The notes under the pieces were generated by a model. That model was given only the letters and a program-made list of their open reading frames with translations, did not search any database and was not told the DNA's origin. From NCBI RefSeq assembly GCF_035285525.1, contig NZ_JAYKGW010000227.1:1-27055 (forward strand): 27,055 nt of DNA, written 5' to 3'. The DNA comes from Okeania sp. GTDB taxonomy: Bacteria > Cyanobacteriota > Cyanobacteriia > Cyanobacteriales > Microcoleaceae. The translations under genes and the position numbers were made by a program. This document shows, piece by piece, positions 2,539 to 27,055 of the stretch (position 1 is its first letter; each line of letters opens with the position of its first letter).

Positions 2539-2573
2539 CTTATAGACAGATATTTCAGCAACAAAGCCATTAA

Positions 2574-2601
2574 TAATTATTAATTATTAATTATTAATTA
2601 T
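2574..2601. repeat. STRR-type heptamer tandem repeat (TAATTAT x4)
   Basis: Direct reading. The same heptamer array recurs at 4600-4632. Confidence 0.85.
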
Positions 2602-3223
2602 TAAAAGCTATCCCTGAGCAGGAACTACTGAAACCCTTGTGGGACTCACCCCTAGCCCCTCCCAGGAGGGGAAGGGGGAGCAGGGGAGAAGGGAGAAAGA
2701 GTCATCGTAGCTAGGTAACACTACTCAAGTTATCAAAAAAATGTACTTTTTCATACACTTTTTCCCCAACAAAAGCCATTTAAAGGCTTACACATAACTT
2801 GTATATCATGTCTAATTATGTTAAAAAAGATGTTTATAAAGCATAGTATCTAAGGGGAGGCTTCAAGGCATGAATTATTGAATGAATAATTATTAACTAT
2901 CAACTATTAATTATTAATTGTTTGGTAATAGACCTTTCCAACAATAACAAATTAAATCAGTCATCGGATATAAATAAATATACTTAACTGAACCATATTT
3001 TTTGCAGTTTTCTAGTCTGAAAAGCCTATCTAATCCTTCCATATTATAGGATTTTTCGTCTTAAATGAACCGTATTGAGATATACAGGGGATTCTAGTTT
3101 GGTGAGGTACATCCACGGAAGCAGGAAGCACGGTTCCCGAAAAATCGCACTGGTAAGATTTACTAATTAATATTTGTACTTAATTATGCCTGGAATATGC
3201 TGTAAATTATCTATTATTTCTGC

Positions 3224-3244
3224 CTATTCCCTATTCCCTATTCC
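3224..3244. repeat. STRR-type heptamer tandem repeat (CTATTCC x3)
   Basis: Direct reading. The array ends 8 nt before the ATG at 3253. Confidence 0.85.
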
Positions 3245-3252
3245 CTAATTAA

Positions 3253-4602
3253 ATGAAAAATATTAAATTTTACAATCCTACTCTAGAAAAACTCAAGCCA
3301 AAAGTTCATAACTGGTTAAAATTTATGATAATTAGACTCAAACAAAAATTCAAAATAACCATTTTAATTTTAGCAACTTTCCTAAGTATTCTATGTATAT
3401 CAATTTTACCTGCACAAACTCAGGAAAAACCTGTAAATATCCAAGTATTAATTCAAGCTCTAGAAGGTACTCAGTGGGAAAAAATTCAAGCAGACTTTAA
3501 CAAAACTCACCCCAATATTAATTTAGAAATTGTTAAAGGTCCTAACAATACTAACCTAGTAGAAGACCTTTATACATCCTCTTTTTTGCTAGGAGATTCT
3601 CCTTACGATCTAGCTTATATGGATATTGTTTGGGTACAAAAATTTGCTGCTGCTGAGTGGTTAAAAGACCTTTCTGAAAAAGTCGATATACAACAATTAA
3701 AAGAACAATATTTACCACGAGATGTTGAAGGAGGAACTTATCAAGGCAAACTCTATCGAATGCCATTGCGCTCTGATGGAGGAATGCTTTATTATCGCAC
3801 AGATTTACTAAAAAAAGCAGGATTTCAATCTCCTAATACTTTTGCCGAACTAATAAAAATATCAAAAAAATTACAACAGCAAAAATTAACAGAATGGGGT
3901 TATGTTTGGCAAGGTAAACAATATGAAGGTTTATCGGCAATGTTTATAGAAATACTCAAAGGTTATGGTGGTTTTTGGGTAAACCCAGAAACAAATCAAG
4001 TAGGTTTAGATCGACCAGAAGCTATCGAGGCAGTCAATTTTTTACGCACAACTATTGATGAAGGAATTTCTCCTCCTGGAGTAACTACTTATGGAGAAGA
4101 AGAAACCCGTCTTTTATTTCAAAGTGGCAATACAGTTTTTCTGCGTAATTGGCCTTATGTATATCCATTAGCATCAACATCAAAAATAGCTGGAAATTTT
4201 AATATTAAACCAATGGTTCATGCTCCAGGAAAAAATAGTGGAGCTTGTTTAGGAGGATGGGGTTTCGGAATAGTTAAAACTACAAAACATCCAGAGGAAG
4301 CATGGGAAGTTATTCAATACTTCAATCAACCAGAAATACAGCGGAAGTTGATTTTAGCAACAGGATTTATTCCAGCTAGAAAGTCTCTTTTTAATGACCC
4401 TATTTTGGTAGAAAAATTTCCTTATTTACCAGATTTATTCTCAGTAGTTAATAATTCTGTCTTACGTCCACCTATTCCTCAATATGCTCAAGCATCAGAT
4501 ATTTTACAACGTTATTTAAGTACTGCCTTAACAGGTTCCGGTACACCAGAGTCAGCAATGAAAACTGCAGCTAAAGAAACTCGTGTTTTGTTAGGAGAAT
4601 AA
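3253..4602 (+). CDS. ABC transporter extracellular solute-binding protein (family 1, carbohydrate type)
   Basis: 449-aa ORF with a hydrophobic signal/anchor (ITILILATFLSILCISILPAQ). Its size and motifs (YRTDLL, WGYVWQGKQYEGL, LRNWPY) are typical of sugar-binding proteins, and it is followed by two MalF/MalG-type permeases. An alternative ATG at 3325 (MIIRLKQKF) would give a more conventional signal peptide. Confidence 0.85.
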   Translation: MKNIKFYNPTLEKLKPKVHNWLKFMIIRLKQKFKITILILATFLSILCISILPAQTQEKPVNIQVLIQALEGTQWEKIQADFNKTHPNINLEIVKGPNNTNLVEDLYTSSFLLGDSPYDLAYMDIVWVQKFAAAEWLKDLSEKVDIQQLKEQYLPRDVEGGTYQGKLYRMPLRSDGGMLYYRTDLLKKAGFQSPNTFAELIKISKKLQQQKLTEWGYVWQGKQYEGLSAMFIEILKGYGGFWVNPETNQVGLDRPEAIEAVNFLRTTIDEGISPPGVTTYGEEETRLLFQSGNTVFLRNWPYVYPLASTSKIAGNFNIKPMVHAPGKNSGACLGGWGFGIVKTTKHPEEAWEVIQYFNQPEIQRKLILATGFIPARKSLFNDPILVEKFPYLPDLFSVVNNSVLRPPIPQYAQASDILQRYLSTALTGSGTPESAMKTAAKETRVLLGE

Positions 4603-4632
4603 TTATTAATTATTAATTATTAATTATTAATT
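4600..4632. repeat. STRR-type heptamer tandem repeat (TAATTAT x4.7)
   Basis: The array begins with the TAA stop codon of the binding-protein gene. Confidence 0.85.
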
Positions 4633-6649: not shown

Positions 6650-6892
6650 AAGGCAAAAGTATCGGTAAAATTCAAGAACCTAGGGGTTTGGTCTCCAATT
6701 TTTCGGGAACCGTACCCTATACAAACTAAGAACTTTCCCCAATACTGATGGTACACCCTTATTCTCCAAAGCCAGTTGAATAGTTATAAATAACGAGGGA
6801 GGAGTCAGGAGTTAACCCACCCCTAACCCCTCCCAGGAGGGGAAAAAGAAGAAACAAGTTTTTTTATCATTGATTATCCGGACATGATATTA

Positions 6893-6913
6893 CTGATAAC
6901 TGATAACTGATAA
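6893..6913. repeat. STRR-type heptamer tandem repeat (CTGATAA x3)
   Basis: Direct reading. The array ends 9 nt before the ATG at 6923. The same repeat occurs in the gene-proximal orientation at 26112-26128, upstream of the minus-strand gene that ends at 25993. Confidence 0.85.
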
Positions 6914-6922
6914 CTGAAGAAA

Positions 6923-9379: not shown

Positions 9380-9706
9380 ATGTCTAAAACATCTACAATT
9401 ACAGAACACATTGAAATTACTCCAGGAATTTGTGGTGGAAAACCTCGGATTGCTGGCCATCGAATTAGAGTAGAAGATATTGTTATCTGCCATGAAAAAA
9501 TGGGTTTTTCACCAGATGAAATTGTCTCTCAATATCCTAGTATTACTTTAGCTGATGTTTATGCTGCTTTGACTTATTATCACGATCATTTAGAAGAGAT
9601 TAGGCAGCAAATTTTGGAGGATGAAGAATTTGCTAGAGCAATGCAAGCTGAAACTCCTTCTTTAGTGGCAAAAAAATTACGAGAAAGTTATGGCAGAAAA
9701 GATTAA
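9380..9706 (+). CDS. DUF433-domain protein (antitoxin-like)
   Basis: 108-aa ORF with the ITPGICGGKPRIAGHRIRVEDIV signature of DUF433. It overlaps the next gene by 17 nt. Confidence 0.8.
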   Translation: MSKTSTITEHIEITPGICGGKPRIAGHRIRVEDIVICHEKMGFSPDEIVSQYPSITLADVYAALTYYHDHLEEIRQQILEDEEFARAMQAETPSLVAKKLRESYGRKD

Positions 9707-10025
9707 ATTTCATCTAGATGAAAATGCTCCTAATGCAATAGCTGGTGGTTTAAGGCGACGAAATATTGATGTAACTACTACTTCTGAGGCTAGTTTAATT
9801 TCTCTGTCAGATGAAGAACAATTGATATTTGCTACGAATCAAAATCGGGTTATTTTTACTCAGGATAGAGATTTTTTGCGACTGCATTATGCTGGTTTTT
9901 CACATAGTGGAATTGCTTATTGTGTTAAGGGCAGTCGTTCAATAGGTGAAATTTTACGCGGACTAATTCTGATTTGGGAAGTATTGGAACCTGAAGATAT
10001 GATTGGAAAAGTTGAGTTTTTGTAA
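9690..10025 (+). CDS. DUF5615-family PIN-like nuclease (toxin-like partner of DUF433)
   Basis: 111-aa ORF containing KFHLDENAPNAIAGGLRRRNIDV and FTQDRDF. The DUF433/DUF5615 pairing is a recurrent two-gene module. Confidence 0.7.
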   Translation: MAEKIKFHLDENAPNAIAGGLRRRNIDVTTTSEASLISLSDEEQLIFATNQNRVIFTQDRDFLRLHYAGFSHSGIAYCVKGSRSIGEILRGLILIWEVLEPEDMIGKVEFL

Positions 10026-10730: not shown

Positions 10731-10869
10731 CATTGGGGCGATCGCTCCTCAAATCTGGTTTGTTGACGAAGGAGCGATCGCTCTTGTTTAAAAATTGGGA
10801 TGGGATATGAGGGAGCTGTTGCCTTTCGTTAACTAATATGTTATAGTTTATAATTTTCAGAAAATTGAT

Positions 10870-11214
10870 AGCTGTAGGTTGGGTTGTTTGCGTTAGCATT
10901 GCGGAGCATGGAACGTTAGCGGAGCTTATCCGTAGGATCAACCCAACATTAGTAGGGTTTTGTTGGGTTTCACTCCGTTCAACCCAACTACATTTGCGTA
11001 AGTCCTAATAAATCCGTATATCCGTGGCCAAATCACTGTCTAGCTGTAGGTTGGGTTGTTTGCGTTAGCATTGCGGAGCATGGAACGTTAGCGGAGCTTA
11101 TCCGTAGGATCAACCCAACATTAGTAGGGTTTTGTTGGGTTTCACTCCGTTCAACCCAACCTACATTTGCGTCAGTCCTAATAAATCCGTATATCCGTGG
11201 CTAAATCACTGTCT
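10870..11214. repeat. Near-identical tandem duplication of a 172/173-bp structured unit
   Basis: Copy 1 is 10870-11041 and copy 2 is 11042-11214. I see only three differences: one 1-nt indel and two substitutions. Each unit holds a long hairpin (gtaggttgggttg ... caacccaac) and a second hairpin (gttgggtttcactccgttcaacccaac). A third unit starts (agct) and overlaps the TAG stop of the gene ending at 11217. Confidence 0.9.
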
Positions 11215-11216
11215 AG

Positions 11217-12632
11217 CTAAAGCTTCTTAATCCCCCTTAAAGCCATAATTTTCTGAATAATAACAGTGAATCCTGCTCCCATAACACCAAAAAATAAACT
11301 TAAAAATAGGGTTTGAGTCAAAGGATGGAGATGAAAATCAGGCAACAGAGGTTTTTCCGGTTCTTGGGCAATTATATATGGAGCAACTGTGGCACCAACT
11401 GCTCCTGACGTCAAACCTACACCCATAATAGCTATGGTATTTTGGAAAGAGCGATCGCTTTCTGTTTGTTCGATATCTACTCTACCCTGAATAGCTGTCA
11501 TCGCTTTTTCTAGTAATGTAGCTCCATGCTGAAAGTAGCCTAAGTCCGATTGGAGTTGTTCTCTAAATAAGCGATAGTCTTCATCAAAAAATTGAGACAG
11601 GAAACTAAGATTTTCTCCTGGAAGTTGGCTTTGAATATCATTTATTTCTCGTTTATAGTTTTGGGCGTTGATATCAATAGTTAAGCGATAGTTATCTAGC
11701 TCACGAGTAAATTGATTATATGATAAATATTTTTGGGGAATCTCTTTTAAGTATTTTTTGAATTGATTTAATTCTTTTTCAGTTAGCTTTTTATCAACTG
11801 GCATTCCCTGGAAAATTTCCTGAATATAGGATTCAATAGCTAGATACTCCTTGCGAAGTACATCGTGGACTTGACGACTAAGTTTGTAAGCTGTGACTAC
11901 TTTGTTTAAATAACAAAATAGATTCACAAAGGATGAATAATAGTGGGTAAATTTCCTGTCGGTTTCAGTTTCACAGAATATCCAAACCACTACATGGCAG
12001 TAGTCCTTTCCTTGAGTAGGAACACCGTATTCAAAAATAGGACTGCCAAATAATTGACTTTCTCGATAAAAGTCAGGACAAGAATATTCGTTAGGAATAA
12101 ATCCTCTCAAACAATTATCTGCCAGTTCCCTAAGTTTTTGGCGATTTTGTAAAGATTTCCTCGGCAACCACTGTTTTTCCTGTGTGTACCAAACTGTTAA
12201 GAGCAAAGTTTGACCAAGAGAACTCCCTATTTCAGTAGGCATTAAGCATCCTGAAGGATTAAGAAGTTTCAGAAAGTTCGGGTTTAGGGGATTTGTTTTT
12301 TTCCCATTCTCGTCTAACTCGGGACGGCGAATATTGAGAGCGAGGGTGTAGGTATCGTGAATGCGGATGGGAGCAGCAACTCCCGTAATAGGGAGTTGTG
12401 TCCCATCTAGGAAGACTTGACTCTCAAAATGGAGAGCCACATCATCCTCTGTTTTATGTTTGAGCAAGTCAACGCGATATCCTATTTGCTCCTCAATTTC
12501 TAGGGGTTGGGTAAGGCCAAATTTCCGGGACAGAATGGTATTGCATTTGTCCCAGAGTAGGTTAGGGCGATCGCTTTCTTTTAAATGAAAAGCAAATAAA
12601 TGGACATTAGGAGCATAGACTTTTTTAATCAT
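11217..12632 (-). CDS. Candidate membrane effector: soluble N-domain, coiled coil, two C-terminal glycine-zipper TM helices
   Basis: Long ORF. The first ATG is at 12632 (MIKKVYAPNV) and overlaps the upstream stop as ATGATTAA; the track start at 12665 is a TTG. TM1 IAIMGVGLTSGAVGATVAPYII is at 11370-11435 and TM2 LTQTLFLSLFFGVMGAGFTVIIQ is at 11253-11321. A heptad-rich region precedes them. I recognised no family. Confidence 0.8.
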   Translation of the reverse strand: MIKKVYAPNVHLFAFHLKESDRPNLLWDKCNTILSRKFGLTQPLEIEEQIGYRVDLLKHKTEDDVALHFESQVFLDGTQLPITGVAAPIRIHDTYTLALNIRRPELDENGKKTNPLNPNFLKLLNPSGCLMPTEIGSSLGQTLLLTVWYTQEKQWLPRKSLQNRQKLRELADNCLRGFIPNEYSCPDFYRESQLFGSPIFEYGVPTQGKDYCHVVVWIFCETETDRKFTHYYSSFVNLFCYLNKVVTAYKLSRQVHDVLRKEYLAIESYIQEIFQGMPVDKKLTEKELNQFKKYLKEIPQKYLSYNQFTRELDNYRLTIDINAQNYKREINDIQSQLPGENLSFLSQFFDEDYRLFREQLQSDLGYFQHGATLLEKAMTAIQGRVDIEQTESDRSFQNTIAIMGVGLTSGAVGATVAPYIIAQEPEKPLLPDFHLHPLTQTLFLSLFFGVMGAGFTVIIQKIMALRGIKKL

Positions 12633-12999
12633 TGTTCTGATTTTGGTCAGGTTGTGCTGATTCAAATTCAGTTGAGTCGGTTCTTTCGGATAGTTTTTCC
12701 TTAACCTTTTCGCTCAATTCTGGGAAGGTATTGGTGATACGAGCAGATTCATTTGCCTTCGAGGGTGGGACTTTTGTCAACTCTTTAGTATTTTGTAGAT
12801 TCTCTAGTCTTATAAGAGCATCAACTATAGACGGTCTTGTTTTACACCAATCTCCAAGAATGAGGTCGGCATTTTTTGGGGGATCATTCTCTAGGGGAGC
12901 CAAGGTTTGCTGCAAGTCTTGGAGGTCAGCAGTAGAAAACAGTTCAGGCTCGGTTTCTAAAAGAAGGGGGAAATTTTGGAGAAAAGGGTTAGTAATCAT
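12625..12999 (-). CDS. Small acidic hypothetical protein (operon member)
   Basis: 124-aa ORF with ATG start. The N-terminal half is acidic and the tail is low-complexity (SERTDSTEFESAQPDQNQNND). It lies 75 nt downstream of the CHAT gene and is translationally coupled to the next gene. Confidence 0.6.
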   Translation of the reverse strand: MITNPFLQNFPLLLETEPELFSTADLQDLQQTLAPLENDPPKNADLILGDWCKTRPSIVDALIRLENLQNTKELTKVPPSKANESARITNTFPELSEKVKEKLSERTDSTEFESAQPDQNQNND

Positions 13000-13074: not shown

Positions 13075-16000
13075 TTACTTTCCAACAGTGCAGAAAGCTG
13101 CCCAGTGGTAAGGATCTTGGTAGAGTTGTCTGTCCGAAGGAAGGAAATATAGATATCCTTGAATCCTTTGGGCAAGCTCTTCTTCTAATTTTAACTTACT
13201 TGTCCACTTTTGTAGTTCTGCTACTGTAACATCCCGCAACCATAGTTGAGCTTGCTTGAGAGCCATAGCAACAGTTAGGCCAGACTTGAGGTTTTGATAA
13301 AACTTGATGAGTAAAAAAGCTGCGGATACTTGATTCACTGACCACAAACTGCTGACAACATTTGACGCACCTGCATAGAGGAAAGCACTGGGTAAACCAA
13401 TATATTCATCACTCCAGGATGTTAAGTCAATCAATCCTGTTTCACAAGCAGAGAGGGTTGCGAGGCGACATTGATTGAGGTTGAATCCAAAGATTTCTGC
13501 GAGAGTAAGTCTCCCATCTTTTTGAACATCATCTTTAGCTAGAGAAAGTGCAGAGGCATTGGCTATACCTAAGTTAAAGTTGCCATGACAGGAAAAATGA
13601 ATACAGTGGGATGACTGGAGGTGGGAGTTAGTTTTGACTTTTGCTTTCTTAGCATCTTTTCCAACTAAGACATCGACTGAATCAAAGTTGGAAAGAATTG
13701 CTTGTACTTCTATGTCTGCATAGATTAGATCCTCTGTCGGGTTTTGAACAGCAAACAGTTGGCTGAAGTAGGGACGTTCTCGTTTTTGAGTAAGTTGCAA
13801 TAGTTGGTTACTAGGAGCATAACTTACTCCTCCACTAAAGCGCTCGATAAGCAGATCGCCATTTGCTAGGGGCATAGCATGGAGAGGAAATAGATGTAGG
13901 TAGCGATGAGGAATCAGGATAAGACGGTTACACTTAATTCCTTGTTTGTCAAAGATGTTATCTATTGTTGTTAAGAGGCGATCGATTTCTAGGATATCAG
14001 CCAAATCTTTAAGACTAGAAGCTAAATTATTTCTCCACTGCTTTTTCTGCCGACGATACCCATCTAAATAGTCACCTGCCCAATCAATTAAAGACTTAAG
14101 TTCTTCAGCGGATGATTCTTGAACTATAGGTTGAACGCCATTGTTAGTTACGATAAAAGTTAATATTTTATCTTTAACAAGATACCATTGGATAATGACA
14201 GTCTGTTCGTCAATAAGATTTTGAATATCTCTATAGGAAATTAGTTCTACCCTCTGAGTTAGGTTGAAACTGGGATCTATACGTTGAATTTGATCTAGTA
14301 CCTCATTTAGCTGCTGTTGTGACTCCTGTAATTCTTGCTGTAGTCGCTTCTCTGAATTTTCTGACGCTCGTCTCTGCCTATTTAATAGTTGAAACTCATT
14401 TCCTGATAGTTGCTTTCTATCTATTTGTAACCGTTTTTCCAGTGATGTTATATTTCGCCGTAGCGAGTCTAGCTGAGTAATTATTTCTTGGGGAATATTC
14501 CCTTTTGGATAAAGATCGCTTCTGGCTAGACGCTCCACTAGGTTACGAGTTTTACTGCGCTCCACAATTTCGATGGCTTTATCAACCTGTCCTAGATTAA
14601 TGTATGCTTGCACCTGATTTTCATAAACCTCCATTGCCCCTTCCATAATCTCTTGGCGACGCTCATCAGTGTTTACCCAACTGCGGCTGATTTCGGCCGC
14701 AATCATGGCTGTTTCATAATTTTCAGTTGCTAGTTGCCAATTTCCCTTATCAAAGTATAAGTCACCTAATGTGTAGGCAGTTATAAAATGGTTAGAGGGA
14801 TTTGCTTCAATAGTGTAAATTTGAAGAGCTTTTTGCAAGCTAGCAATAGCAAATTCGATATTTTCTGCTTTGTCTCCTTTGATTCTGTCCCTGTAGGCAG
14901 TGCTGATATTATTTTGAATTCTTGCCCAGTCGTAGGGAAAGTTATTTTTTGTGTAAATTTGGAGAGCCTGTTCATATGCAGCAATAGCGAATTCAATATT
15001 TTCTGCTTTGTCTTCTTTGATTCTCTTTGCGTAAGCAGTGCCGATATTGTTTTGAGTGCTTGCCCAGTCGTAAGGAAAGTTGTTTTGTGTGTGAACATGG
15101 AGCGCTTGTTCGTATGCAGCAATAGCGGATTCAATATTTTCTGCTTTCTCTCCTATGATTCTATGGGAGTAGGCAATACCAAGGTTGTTTTGAGTGCTTG
15201 CCCAGTTGTCAGGAAAGCTGTTTTCAGTGAAAACTTGGAGAGCTTGTTCGTATGCAACAATAGCAGATTCGATATTCTCTGATTTGTTTCCTTTGATTCT
15301 GTCAGTGTAAGCACTGCCAAGATTGTTTTGAGTTTCTGCCCAGTTGTATGGGAAGTCAATTTTGTCATTAACTTGGAGAGCTTGTCCGTATGCAGCAATA
15401 GCAAATTCAATGTTCTCTGCTTTATCTCCTTTGATTCTGTCAGTGTAAGCATTCCCAAGATTGTTTTGAGTTTCTGCCCAGGGGTGGGGGTACTGAGTTT
15501 TAGTGCGAACCTGGAGAGCTTTTTTATATGCACTAATAGCAGATTCAATATTTTCTGCTTTGTCTCCTCTGATTCTTTTTTTGTAAGCACTCCCAAGATT
15601 GTTTTGAGTAGATGCCCATTCAATACGGAACTTAGTTTTGGTGTAAACCTGGAGAGCTTCTTGATGTAAATTAATTGCAAATTCGATGTTCTTTGCTTTG
15701 TTGCCTCTGATTCTGCGACTGTAGGCAACCCCGAGATTGTTCTTAGTCATTGCCCACTGCTTGGGAAACTTGTTTTTGGTGCGAACTTGAAGAGCTTGTT
15801 CGTATGCAGCAATAGCAAATTCAATATTCTCTGCTTTGTTGCCTCTGATTCTGTTTCTGTAGGCCATACCAAAATTGTGCTTAATTTTTGCCCATTTTTC
15901 TGGATACCTCTTTCTGGTAAGGATTGTTTCTGCTATATGATAACCTGCGATTGCAATTTCTACATTAACTGCTCTATTTCCCCGAGTAAATTTCATTATG

Positions 16001-16374
16001 TGGAAGGAAAACTCCCAAATTGCTTCAGCAATGCGTTCGGCAGTTTCCGGTTTAGCTTCTGGTTTAACTTCAGAAAATACAGAAGTTGCCCAGATTTTCA
16101 AGGTATCAATAAAGTCATCATCAAGCTCTTGTAGTAATACCTTGACAGATTGATCCCCCCTCACATCCCCTCTACTCTCAAGAATCCTTTGTAATATTTC
16201 AACCAAAAAATCTAGCTGAGATTTAAGGTGATCTGGTAATTTTTCTCTGGTTTCAGAGCTTGCCTTTAAATTCTTGAAATTCAAGTCTACAGCCAAAAAT
16301 CTGTCCTGTAGAAGTGAAGGTTTTAAAATGATTGCTATAGGTAGGAAAATATCGTGCAAACTTTCTTTTAACAT
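13075..16374 (-). CDS. TPR-repeat CHAT-domain (caspase-like) protease
   Basis: 1099-aa ORF with ATG start. It has nine 46-aa repeats ([32 protein letters not shown]...), a coiled coil (LEKRLQIDRKQL...QQELQESQQQLNEVLDQIQ) and a C-terminal CHAT domain. The His motif is IHFSCHG (His930 codon 13585-13587) and the Cys motif is TLSACETG (Cys977 codon 13444-13446). Confidence 0.95.
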   Translation of the reverse strand: MLKESLHDIFLPIAIILKPSLLQDRFLAVDLNFKNLKASSETREKLPDHLKSQLDFLVEILQRILESRGDVRGDQSVKVLLQELDDDFIDTLKIWATSVFSEVKPEAKPETAERIAEAIWEFSFHIMKFTRGNRAVNVEIAIAGYHIAETILTRKRYPEKWAKIKHNFGMAYRNRIRGNKAENIEFAIAAYEQALQVRTKNKFPKQWAMTKNNLGVAYSRRIRGNKAKNIEFAINLHQEALQVYTKTKFRIEWASTQNNLGSAYKKRIRGDKAENIESAISAYKKALQVRTKTQYPHPWAETQNNLGNAYTDRIKGDKAENIEFAIAAYGQALQVNDKIDFPYNWAETQNNLGSAYTDRIKGNKSENIESAIVAYEQALQVFTENSFPDNWASTQNNLGIAYSHRIIGEKAENIESAIAAYEQALHVHTQNNFPYDWASTQNNIGTAYAKRIKEDKAENIEFAIAAYEQALQIYTKNNFPYDWARIQNNISTAYRDRIKGDKAENIEFAIASLQKALQIYTIEANPSNHFITAYTLGDLYFDKGNWQLATENYETAMIAAEISRSWVNTDERRQEIMEGAMEVYENQVQAYINLGQVDKAIEIVERSKTRNLVERLARSDLYPKGNIPQEIITQLDSLRRNITSLEKRLQIDRKQLSGNEFQLLNRQRRASENSEKRLQQELQESQQQLNEVLDQIQRIDPSFNLTQRVELISYRDIQNLIDEQTVIIQWYLVKDKILTFIVTNNGVQPIVQESSAEELKSLIDWAGDYLDGYRRQKKQWRNNLASSLKDLADILEIDRLLTTIDNIFDKQGIKCNRLILIPHRYLHLFPLHAMPLANGDLLIERFSGGVSYAPSNQLLQLTQKRERPYFSQLFAVQNPTEDLIYADIEVQAILSNFDSVDVLVGKDAKKAKVKTNSHLQSSHCIHFSCHGNFNLGIANASALSLAKDDVQKDGRLTLAEIFGFNLNQCRLATLSACETGLIDLTSWSDEYIGLPSAFLYAGASNVVSSLWSVNQVSAAFLLIKFYQNLKSGLTVAMALKQAQLWLRDVTVAELQKWTSKLKLEEELAQRIQGYLYFLPSDRQLYQDPYHWAAFCTVGK
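14790..15985. repeat. Intragenic 138-bp (46-codon) tandem repeat array, about 9 units
   Basis: The ENIE(F/S)AI motif recurs at residues 137/183/229/275/321/367/413/459/505 of the CHAT protein, exactly 46 aa apart. DNA-level similarity between units generates several stop-free shadow ORFs on both strands. Confidence 0.85.
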
Positions 16375-16389
16375 ATTAATTACTACATA

Positions 16390-16490
16390 AATAATTTTCT
16401 GAATAGAGAAAGCTTCTTTTACAGATCATCGCGAAAACTTTGTTTTAGTGCCTCAATAAATTTCTGAATAGAGAAAGCTTCTTTTACAGA
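16390..16490. repeat. 36-nt direct repeat pair (16390-16425 and 16455-16490, one mismatch) at the junction of the ClpN-TPR and CHAT genes
   Basis: aataa(t/a)tttctgaatagagaaagcttcttttacaga is read twice, 65 nt apart. See the finding at 16374-16490. Confidence 0.9.
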
Positions 16491-17903
16491 ACGTTGACTA
16501 TTGATAAAGTTTTCAAGACTTGTTTCTTGTGTTTTACTAAAAATGTTTGTATAGTATTCGGCTTCGCTAGGTTTTGAGGACATCTCCTGCCAATACCTGA
16601 AAGAAAATTTTCCTGTCTTATCTAGGTTTGAGCGAGCTCTGGACAAGTTCCGTTTAGTGGCTTTGCACTTTTCAGGGGGGTCTTGTTTGTCATAAACAGA
16701 TAAAGCTAATTGATAGGCATGAACAGCTTTTTTCAGATTCTCAGTTTTATTGTCAATTCTTTGAATATAAGCATCGCTAAGATTACATTGAGTTTCTGCC
16801 CAATCAACCGGGTAATCCGCTTTAGTATAAACTTTCAGAGCTTCTAGGAATGCAGCAATAGCAGATTCAATGTTTTGTGCTTTGTCTCCTTTAATTCTGC
16901 TGCTGTAGGCAAGGCCAAGATTATTTTGAGTCATTGCCCAGTCGATAGGAAGGTTGTTTTGGGTACGAACTTCCAAAGATTTTTTGTATGCAGCAATGGC
17001 AAATTCAATATTTTCAGCTTTATCTCCAATGATCCTGTTAGTGTAGTAGCTATGGCCGAGATTGTGTTGAACAATTGCCCAAATTTCAGGATGATAGTTG
17101 GGACTCAAGAATGTGGACATTATTTCATAACCTGCAATGCTAATTTCTACATTAGCTGCTTTATTGCCCAAAGGAAACTCCCTAATGAGGTTACTGAAGC
17201 CGAAAATAAATGTAGCAAAATTTTCCACTACACTCACCTCTGCTTCCGACATAGTAGTTGCAAGATTTCGTAATACGTTAGCAAAGTTAAGATCGAGTTT
17301 ATCCAAATTAGCTTCTAGGAATGGATAAACTACTTCGGGGTTGCCATAGCTTTTTAGGGTAATCTGCAATACCTCCGACAAAAAATCCTGATAATCTTGA
17401 GGTGAGTAATTAGATGAAGTAACAGGTTGTGGATTTTCTTTCCTCTCGAATAGTTCAACAAAGCTCACATGAGTAATTTCATTGAAAATTTCTACTGGTT
17501 GTACCCCCATTTTTTCAAAGATTTTGACTTCTATTCCTTTTGGGAGATCGTTAGTTAAACCTAACAACACTGATAACAAATTTTCCGTGCAGACATTTTG
17601 GGCTTTTGAGCGTCTCGCCTCTTCTAAAGCTAACTCTAGAATTTTTTTAGCTCTTGGACTAAAAGGTATTTCTTCAGTATTTCTGCCTCCAGGCCCTCTA
17701 CCAACAATTTTCTCTACCTGAACACGGGCATCCTTCAGATTTATTCCCAGAGATTTGAGAACCTGTGCAGCTATGCCAGTATCTTCCGCAATCAATCCTA
17801 AAAGAATATGCTCTCCCCCAACAAAATTATGTCCCATACGTTGAGATTCTTGTTGGGCAAGCATAATCGCCTTAATCGCTTTTTCACTAAATCGCTCAAA
17901 CAA
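16419..17903 (-). CDS. ClpC-like N-terminal (Clp R) domain fused to a TPR-like repeat scaffold; no AAA+ module
   Basis: 494-aa [73 protein letters not shown] closely resembles the start of cyanobacterial ClpC as I remember it. It starts with TTG at 17903, 8 nt after a GGAGG (17912-17916). Residues from about 175 onward parallel the N-terminal module of the CHAT protein, followed by four 46-aa repeats. Confidence 0.9.
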
Positions 17904-21349: not shown

Positions 21350-22018
21350 TATAACTGAACTTCCCCTTTGACAAAAGGCTACAATTTATGCTGTACAAGA
21401 GATAGATCGAATTATCCACCCCTATTTACTGACTACAATGAGTGTAGAGTTCTGAAATTATTTATAGGGCTTACCCATGGACTCTACTGGTAGGGTGTGT
21501 TTCGCGTTCCGCAAAGCTCCGCTTTATATGTCGGCTCAAGCGTCGAAACGCTACGCGACATGAAAAGCCTACAACGCACAACGCACCAACACTCTATATA
21601 TAGAGCTTTTGCGTAAGTCCTGATCTATAATATCTAACTGCTTTTTTAGGACTTACGCAGGAATGCTATTGGTAGGGTGCGTTTTGCGTTCCGCAAAGCT
21701 CCGCTTTATATATCGGCTCAAGGGCCGAAACGCTGCGCGACATGAAAAGCGCACAACACACAACGCACAAATACTCTATATATACTGCCTTTGCGTAAGT
21801 CCTGTTTTTGTTGTAGTGAGCGCGAGTCAAAATACATGACTATATTTTAGCAGATACTCCCTGTAAGGTTATATTAAGAAATATTACCAAAATACATGGC
21901 TACACAAAAAAAAGGTGGTCGCGGAGCGCGGAACGGAGTTCTATCGCTCTATCATAAGTAAGATTGATAAAAGTTTTAGAGCTTTATAGTACATTTAGCA
22001 GGGGGAAGTTCAGGTATA
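21350..22018. mobile_element. Possible composite non-autonomous element bounded by 17-nt inverted repeats
   Basis: tataactgaacttcccc (21350-21366) against ggggaagttcaggtata (22002-22018), with one mismatch. The interior contains the 182-bp repeats and no long ORF. Confidence 0.35.
21488..21804. repeat. Tandem 182-bp structured repeat, about 1.7 units
   Basis: Units start at 21488 and 21670 (tggtagggtg(t/c)g...). Each has the long hairpin ggtg(t/c)gtt...aacgcac and the core cgttccgcaaagctccgc, and ends in ttgcgtaagtcctg. The hairpin gcgtaagtcct / aggacttacgc lies at the unit junction. Confidence 0.8.
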
Positions 22019-26574: not shown

Positions 26575-27055
26575 TATTTAAGAGATTCTTTACCAATAAT
26601 TTCTCCTTTAATTTGTTGAATTTTATCTAATAATTCTTGCCGATCAGATTTTCGCAACAAATAACGGTAAATAAACCAACAAACATATCCTATCCCAATA
26701 ATTTCAAAGCTAACTGAGAAAATAGAAATTCCTTGTAAGGCTTGAATAAGGCTAATACCTAAGACTAATATTAATAGTGCTAATAGCACTGAACCAACTA
26801 TTTTTCGTTGAGGTTGATGTTCTTCAGCATTTGAGTTTGTAGTAGTTGCTGGTGTTGCAGCTTTACTTTCTGCTACCACTGTCTTAGGATTAGTTGGCGT
26901 TGCAGTTTTAGTTTTTGCTGCTACCTTAACTTGCTCTGCTACCGGAGGAGTAGTTGGCGTCGCAACTTTAGTTTCTGCTACCTTATCTTTATCTACTACC
27001 GGAGGAGTAGTTGGCGTCGCAACTTTAGTTTCTGCTACCTTATCTTTATCTACTA
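26574..27055 (-). CDS. CAAD-domain (CurT/CURT1-like) membrane protein, 5' end outside the window
   Basis: C-terminal two-TM module (VLLALLILVLGISLIQAL and FEIIGIGYVCWFIYRYLL) is followed by RKSDRQELLDKIQQIKGEIIG, typical of CAAD. The reading frame stays open upstream of the track's GTG (26879) to the window edge, through Pro/Thr/Ala/Lys-rich repeats. Confidence 0.7.
   Translation of the reverse strand, partial: VDKDKVAETKVATPTTPPVVDKDKVAETKVATPTTPPVAEQVKVAAKTKTATPTNPKTVVAESKAATPATTTNSNAEEHQPQRKIVGSVLLALLILVLGISLIQALQGISIFSVSFEIIGIGYVCWFIYRYLLRKSDRQELLDKIQQIKGEIIGKESLK
26885..27055. repeat. In-frame 57-nt (19-codon) tandem repeat in the CAAD gene
   Basis: 26944-27000 and 27001-27055 are identical as far as the window goes. 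A diverged unit lies at 26885-26943. The units encode VVDKDKVAETKVATPTTPP. Confidence 0.85.

Follow-up and report, generated by a model that had tools for sequence, protein, structure and literature searches.

What does a 36-nt direct repeat record when it lies across the boundary of two head-to-tail genes: the breakage of one long gene into two, the duplication of a boundary that already existed, or a device by which two genes can be joined and separated? The repeat in question is found in Okeania sp., a marine filamentous cyanobacterium, on contig NZ_JAYKGW010000227.1 (27,055 nt, G+C 35%), which was analyzed over its whole length and is called the window below. Both genes are on the minus strand. 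The upstream gene encodes a protein with a Clp N-terminal domain and TPR units (ClpN-TPR), and the downstream gene a protein with TPR units and a CHAT protease domain (TPR-CHAT). A preliminary description had read the repeat as either the scar of a recent split of a fused gene or a repeat-mediated switch between split and fused forms. The scar part of that proposal is upheld here and the switch part is not, while the split of a fused gene at this locus is plausible but unproven. Taken as a whole, the feature is probably an imperfect head-to-tail duplication scar on the boundary of the two genes. Its parts are as follows, in the direction of transcription.

16419..17903, minus strand: upstream gene, ClpN-TPR, 494 codons with a TTG start (NCBI WP_375340363.1)
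16455..16490, minus strand: A1, first 36-nt repeat copy, encoding 12 residues near the C-terminus of the ClpN-TPR protein
16448..16454, minus strand: s1, the 7-nt core of unit 1, GAGGCAC, which cannot be aligned with s2
16428..16447, minus strand: L1, distal block of unit 1, TAAAACAAAGTTTTCGCGAT, encoding LKQSFRD
16426..16427, minus strand: joint dinucleotide GA, between the units and with no counterpart past unit 2
16390..16425, minus strand: A2, second 36-nt repeat copy, holding the upstream TAA in a shifted frame and lying in the 5' leader of the CHAT gene
16419..16421, minus strand: TAA stop of the ClpN-TPR gene, arising from A2 read out of frame
16371..16389, minus strand: s2, core of unit 2, TATGTAGTAATTAATATGT, with its 19 nt exceeding s1 by 12 nt; it includes the CHAT ATG (16374-16372)
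16351..16370, minus strand: L2, distal block of unit 2, TAAAAGAAAGTTTGCACGAT, encoding LKESLHD, residues 2-8 of the CHAT protein
13075..16374, minus strand: downstream gene, TPR-CHAT, 1099 codons (NCBI WP_324238696.1)

The repeat and its flanks

The positions first given for the two 36-nt copies, their single mismatch and their 65-nt offset were all reproduced. A1 and A2 are identical at 35 of 36 positions, with a longest exact run of 30 nt and a start-to-start distance of 65 nt. They are the sole two matches in the window at up to 3 mismatches (0 in 100 shuffles), and even at up to 8 mismatches no further copy of the repeat, or of the segment designated B, was found in the window. The 29 nt between the copies had been described as a spacer, a description that did not hold: most of this stretch is part of the repeated unit. 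Once a 12-nt gap is allowed, homology restarts past the core, where L1 (16447-16428) and L2 (16370-16351) match at 17 of 20 positions. When the L1 20-mer was searched at up to 3 mismatches on both strands of the 27 kb, there was one other match, colinear with A2, against a shuffle expectation of 0.00. Compared with random window segments, the local alignment had P = 0.006.

The repeated structure can thus be written as two units. Unit 1 consists of A1, GAGGCAC and L1 and is 63 nt long (16490-16428); unit 2 consists of A2, s2 and L2 and is 75 nt long (16425-16351). They match at 52 of 56 aligned positions, in two blocks placed around the unalignable core of 7 versus 19 nt, and their divergence amounts to 4 substitutions in 56 nt (7%, 95% confidence interval 2-17%) plus a 12-nt indel. 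The units are on the same strand and directly adjacent, with just GA between the end of unit 1 at 16428 and the start of unit 2 at 16425, and the homologous blocks (35/36 and 17/20) occur in the same order, each of them unique in the window. At the protein level, 21 residues of the upstream C-terminus align in frame with 25 residues at the CHAT N-terminus, so that these two termini are copies of each other. Tandem Repeats Finder reported no array at the joint, because of the 12-nt indel. A simple 65-nt tandem duplication with uniform divergence was tried and rejected: without gaps, the 29 nt after A1 match those after A2 at 12 of 29 positions. The duplication that we propose instead may have arisen by replication slippage or illegitimate exchange. 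The window is rich in local repeats (172 nt in 2 copies, 182 nt in 1.9 copies, 57 nt in 2.9 copies, hairpin repeats and more than 15 heptamer arrays), which makes small duplications a normal occurrence in this genome.

It might be supposed that only A2 was copied, as a stand-alone 36-nt insertion placed 29 nt downstream of A1 into a boundary of the form ...RDDM-TAG-TAA-ttaat-ATG. When A2 is removed, the upstream frame does run into ATG TAG TAA, with the CHAT ATG 5 nt further on; the resulting junction looks natural, and both proteins are almost unchanged. However, off-frame stops are frequent at 35% G+C, which makes the look of the junction weak evidence, and the colinear 17/20 homology of L1 and L2, unique in the window and with 0.00 expected, is left unexplained by an insertion of A2 alone. 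We consider such an insertion very unlikely. A slightly smaller chance still is given to an assembly or sequencing artefact, by which the duplication or the GA would be absent from the organism. The sequence does belong to one metagenome-derived genome, and no second genome is known to encode either protein. In the Logan assembly of run SRR19514071, the sequence is identical over 6858 nt, repeat included; this second assembly may draw on the same reads. Yet the two assemblies come from different software and show no base difference over these 6.9 kb. Collapse or overlap artefacts, moreover, do not leave copies set apart by four mismatches and an indel, as is the case here, and at 140 nt the whole structure would fit within a typical short read. 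A duplication present in the organism itself is thus the preferred explanation, and we regard it as a new example of an ordinary event, in which a small tandem duplication shifts the frame at a gene boundary or creates that boundary.

Reading frames across the joint

Translation confirmed the reading of both frames in the preliminary description. In the upstream frame, A1 encodes 12 residues that are followed by 11 more and by the TAA at 16421-16419; in the CHAT frame, A2 encodes 17 residues that run straight into the ATG at 16374, and the sole stop that closes this frame is the TGA at 16428-16426. The two-base joint accounts for both stops. Past unit 1 the upstream ORF (open reading frame) reads GA-T CTG TAA and ends five bases into unit 2, and in the other frame the same GA forms the TGA. 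Unit 1 and GA together make 65 nt and shift the frame by 2; GA alone is the cause of the frameshift. As computed here, deletion of 65 nt yields a single ORF of 1587 codons, the effect that had been claimed for it, and removal of GA by itself yields one of 1608 codons. The two ORFs therefore merge once the insertion is taken out, as is expected of split genes. Unit 2 provides the leader of the CHAT gene, its ATG and codons 2-8. Given this arrangement, the continuity of the frame is a direct consequence of the duplication and of five stop-free codons (YVVIN), and it is not independent evidence of fusion.

The annotated CHAT ATG (16374-16372) is not preceded by a Shine-Dalgarno-like sequence. Direct reading of the sequence gives one further candidate start, 26 codons inside the annotated ORF.

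16294..16307, minus strand: candidate alternative CHAT start, an in-frame TTG (16296-16294) with AGGA (16307-16304) 7 nt 5' to it

If this TTG were the true start, the helical module that precedes the TPR units would begin at about residue 28, nearer to its usual place in the family, and the stretch from A2 as far as the ATG would lie outside the translated region.

Could the repeat work as a programmed or selected switch? A1 and A2 share 30 exact nt at a distance of 65 nt, and deletion between them would let the locus alternate between two genes and a fused ClpN-TPR-TPR-CHAT protein of 1587 residues. Loss of one unit does restore the continuous ORF. Short direct repeats lying this near each other are deleted at low frequency by RecA-independent slipped-strand events, and filamentous cyanobacteria are polyploid, carrying many genome copies; deletion between the identical 30-nt stretches is therefore possible as a mechanism. 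Several observations nevertheless argue against a switch. The units number only two, and the 4 substitutions and the 12-nt indel between them indicate that the arrangement has persisted and did not cycle. Deletion is one-way, because the distinct sequence of a lost unit cannot be regenerated. The window holds no second repeat of this kind, and no homologous locus with a comparable device is known from the searches, in which the junction had no homologue. At the joint itself we found no RNA structure (fold z-score +1.3), no Rfam family, and neither promoter nor terminator. The likeness to phase-variable contingency loci, which also have a direct repeat in or near coding sequence whose loss changes the frame, is limited in the same way. 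Such loci depend on a tract of several identical short units that vary reversibly in number, whereas this locus has two long units (63 and 75 nt) that have diverged, a loss could not be undone, and there is no conserved counterpart elsewhere. The locus is carried by one genome and one further assembly, and its sequence is identical in both. A selected switch is accordingly given very little credence.

Equally little is given to the idea that the duplication serves as a one-way fuse, by which slipped-strand deletion between the 30-nt cores of A1 and A2, or loss of GA, would produce an in-frame fusion protein of about 180 kDa in some genome copies. If it did, cells of a polyploid filament would differ in the coupling of a Clp-N-domain sensor to a caspase-like protease.

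The least probable of the alternatives, with hardly any chance in our estimate, is that the fused protein is made from the present sequence by programmed ribosomal frameshifting or readthrough. A one-base offset separates the two frames, and no stop interrupts the CHAT frame from 16425 on. However, a shift would be confined to the single codon CTG (16424-16422), between the TGA and the TAA; this overlap contains no slippery heptamer of the form X XXY YYZ and no stable downstream structure (z +1.3), and there is no Rfam match. Neither the slippery site nor the stimulatory structure of a programmed frameshift is therefore seen in the overlap. In our reading the locus makes two proteins today, and the duplication is a passive scar, not a device, under either of the ancestral states considered next.

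The locus before the proposed duplication

The domain layout of the two proteins bears on the question of what was duplicated, and it agrees with the layout first described: a Clp N-terminal domain, a CHAT domain, a module common to both proteins, and TPR units of 46 residues, 4 of them upstream and 8-9 downstream.

Upstream protein, minus strand: Clp_N domain, linker, pre-TPR module, 4 TPR units and a 75-residue orphan tail
Downstream protein, minus strand: 54-residue orphan N-terminal extension, pre-TPR module, 8-9 TPR units, helical linker and CHAT

In the Pfam search, Clp_N (PF02861) was matched by residues 16-68 of the upstream protein with 73 bits against a gathering threshold of 20.7, and the second repeat of this domain is degenerate. 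The CHAT domain (PF12770) of the downstream protein scored 185.2 bits against a threshold of 24; it carries SCHG at residue 928 and SACE at residue 975, which we take to be the catalytic dyad from what is known of the family. The helical pre-TPR module and the 46-residue TPR units are common to the two proteins, which are 47% identical over 266 residues. The two genes are paralogous and co-oriented, and they are probably co-transcribed. From the shared module and TPR arrays, the sequences suggest that the two products may associate.

Before the duplication, with one unit only, the upstream gene and the CHAT gene would have shared a single frame. It follows that the ancestor was either a continuous ORF or a pair of genes in the same frame with a stop in the core. 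The simplest reconstruction is one continuous ORF, to which we incline by a modest degree; its interruption would then go back to the 65-nt insertion, or to a 2-nt slip that occurred later at the joint. This route requires no stop-loss events. The unit lengths, 63 and 75, and the core indel of 12 are all multiples of 3, as would be expected if the duplication and the indel arose within a translated ORF, and by chance otherwise in about 1/9 of cases. Codon usage in the common frame is coding-like, at +0.19 bits per codon for the tail, +0.32 for A2 and +0.12 for the N-terminal extension; the reference values are +0.32 +/- 0.11 for true frames and -0.55 +/- 0.22 for off frames. The lack of a Shine-Dalgarno-like sequence at the ATG at 16374 also favours a continuous ORF, while the upstream TTG start has GGGAGG just 5' of it. 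Between the genes we found no terminator and no strong promoter.

Several observations weigh against a fused ancestor, or against a simple duplication as such. Simple substitution or deletion does not lead from the 7-nt core to the 19-nt core or back, and at least one additional complex event must be assumed. Each of 111 homologues has one module and none has two; the module is placed at residue ~10-16, at residue ~85-95, or behind a ClpN or AAA domain. A two-module fused ancestor would thus be unprecedented in the family. No TPR unit spans the joint when it is searched with a hidden Markov model (HMM) of the TPR unit, and Pfam returned nothing on the reconstructed junctions; neither a domain nor a repeat unit is therefore cut at the break, as would be looked for in a split gene. 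Both ORFs are intact, although for the time implied by the unit divergence of 4/56 the probability of remaining open under neutral drift is only ~0.001-0.02 for the CHAT ORF and ~0.05-0.19 for the upstream ORF. Intact ORFs fit a long-standing, functional two-gene state, and are still compatible with a fused ancestor, provided that the duplication came first and the frameshift later. Finally, orthologous loci, whose alignment had been put forward as a check, were sought, and no orthologue, fused or split, was found in the collections searched; as a result the ancestral state cannot be polarized.

Some of these points favour the other way in which a scar could have formed, namely a neutral duplication of an existing boundary. 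It is a sub-case of the scar reading and competes there with the fused ancestor; we hold it to be possible, at distinctly lower probability. Two genes in the same frame would have been separated by a stop and about 12 nt in the core. After a 75-nt tandem duplication, the stop would have been lost from both copies, in unit 1 through replacement of the core and in unit 2 through a change of TAG or TAA to TAT. A single step does indeed separate TAG from each of the present first core codons, GAG (unit 1) and TAT (unit 2), and the event would be selectively neutral. Separate genes are also the family norm, as none of the 111 homologues has more than one module and some module-TPR proteins lack CHAT, and the integrity of both ORFs presents no difficulty. 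On the other side, a boundary duplication needs an additional, specific stop-to-sense change in unit 2, it leaves to chance (~1/9) that the units and the indel are all multiples of 3, and it does not account for an ATG at 16374 without a Shine-Dalgarno-like sequence.

Known split genes offer a comparison. As in genes split by small tandem duplications, adjacent ORFs on the same strand merge once an insertion that is not a multiple of 3 is removed, the insertion is a local head-to-tail duplication, and an internal or new ATG serves as the start of the downstream part. On the other side, the searches gave no intact single-ORF orthologue that would prove fission, the putative parent would have two pre-TPR modules, an arrangement absent from the homologues, and both halves look selectively maintained.

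Relatives, surroundings and meaning

The downstream protein belongs to a well-populated family, with ~1800 homologues mainly in filamentous cyanobacteria. Like the cyanobacterial module-TPR-CHAT proteins in general, it carries 46-residue TPR units between an N-terminal helical module and a C-terminal CHAT domain that bears His and Cys motifs; unlike them, it has an orphan 54-residue extension and is accompanied by a CHAT-less paralogue with a Clp N-domain. The TPR-CHAT protease Csx29 of type III-E systems is a distant relative. A system of this type was considered and rejected, as the protein scored 83.7 bits with NCBIfam NF041237 against a cut-off of 300 and there are no cas genes nearby. The upstream protein starts like ClpC and in this resembles stand-alone Clp N-domain proteins (PF02861 with no AAA+ domain), and it has many AAA-less ClpN relatives; it differs from them in the fusion of ClpN to a module-TPR array. 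In an exhaustive HMMER search with the ClpN-linker-module segment as query, ClpN and the module were matched together by the window protein and fragment P0128 only, and the rest of the matches were multi-ClpN proteins. P0128 (ENA ERZ27294718 k141_117965), a truncated metagenomic fragment with 50-53% identity, is the sole other ClpN-linker-module-TPR protein found. Its last ~20 residues (CLLYTSPSPRDATLSRMPSSA) resemble a translated sequencing adapter; the end of that contig is thus artefactual, and the fragment does not give the true length of the protein. Protein searches found no CHAT proteins with ClpN. The pairing of a Clp N-domain/TPR protein with a paralogous TPR-CHAT protease is uncommon and uncharacterised.

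The regions next to the joint stand apart from this family. Among the top family matches in protein searches, nothing was homologous to the tail, to the N-terminal extension or to the junction. No related junction was found in GTDB representative genomes with peptide patterns and a degenerate DNA pattern, in JGI metagenomes, where the DNA pattern returned just contig JAAUYF010027224.1, or in plasmids. An exact-sequence cluster look-up placed both proteins in single-genome clusters. The 75-residue tail and the 54-residue N-terminal extension gave no match to Pfam, to the TPR-unit HMM, or to the family's N-terminal domain of ~85 residues, which is absent here. When 120 family members were compared by tblastn with all frames, TPR similarity reached only to ~16626, and there were some faint alignments of 26-27% besides. 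Literature searches returned nothing specific to this architecture or event.

The ClpN part of the upstream gene has a close relative of a different kind. Its DNA is ~86% identical to the second ClpN domain of a stand-alone gene with two such domains (ClpNx2) on contig JAAUYF010027224.1 (GCA_013332755.1). The homology, 17903-17400 against 2560-3020, extends from the TTG start to ~30 nt past the ClpNx2 stop with a 1-nt indel. At the DNA level this suggests recent, domain-sized shuffling of ClpN modules. The ClpNx2 gene is also trailed by a DUF433-like ORF (3147-3353), and the window contains a pair of DUF433 and PIN-like (DUF5615) genes at 9380-10025 on the plus strand, a toxin-antitoxin-type module.

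Other neighbours in the window are genes for an ABC transporter, TauE and a GGDEF-EAL protein, in addition to the toxin-antitoxin genes and orphan genes. Defence-system models gave no PADLOC match. Two orphan ORFs follow the CHAT gene and are probably in the same operon.

11217..12999, minus strand: two downstream orphan ORFs of 124 and 482 codons, with no family match

The larger local repeats of the window are listed next.

10869-11218: 172-nt tandem unit in 2.0 copies, 98% identical, just past the 482-codon ORF, with inverted motifs GGGTTG.../...CAACCC
21461-21804: 182-nt tandem duplication in 1.9 copies, 87% identical, intergenic after the ABC-transporter ATPase gene
26886-27055: 57-nt tandem repeat in 2.9 copies, 90% identical, reaching the contig end
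17963-18062 and 18465-18558, minus strand: two direct-repeat blocks of ~95 nt upstream of the ClpN gene

The 57-nt repeat probably encodes a repetitive protein that is cut off at the contig end. Each of the ~95-nt blocks contains two copies of the hairpin motif ACAGCCTTC(C/T)AGGCTGT, and together they flank a segment of ~400 nt with a 60-codon ORF (~18380-18200); a small insertion bounded by repeats is one possible reading, and a family of cyanobacterial palindromic repeats another. The heptamer arrays are mostly intergenic, with units such as TTATCCA, ATTATTA, CCTATTC, TAATTAT and ACTGATA among others, and are found for example at 887-929, 2569-2604, 3223-3247, 4600-4632 and 6892-6917. Short tandemly repeated sequences of similar appearance are known from filamentous cyanobacteria.

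As it stands, the feature at the gene boundary is a mutational scar of an ordinary kind, left in a cyanobacterial genome that is rich in repeats. It may mark the breakage of one long gene into two, and a genetic switch at the repeat is unlikely. The locus shows that continuity of frame over a repeat is no evidence of regulation, and it shows why annotation pipelines cannot flag frameshifts of this kind in orphan regions. If the ancestor was indeed fused, the locus would be a base-resolved example of a bacterial gene split by a small tandem duplication, in which the duplication gave a frameshift, a new stop and a new start region, and both halves survive as genes. In that case a Clp N-domain would once have been joined to a CHAT protease through two TPR arrays, and this past physical joining would hint at cooperation of the present two proteins.

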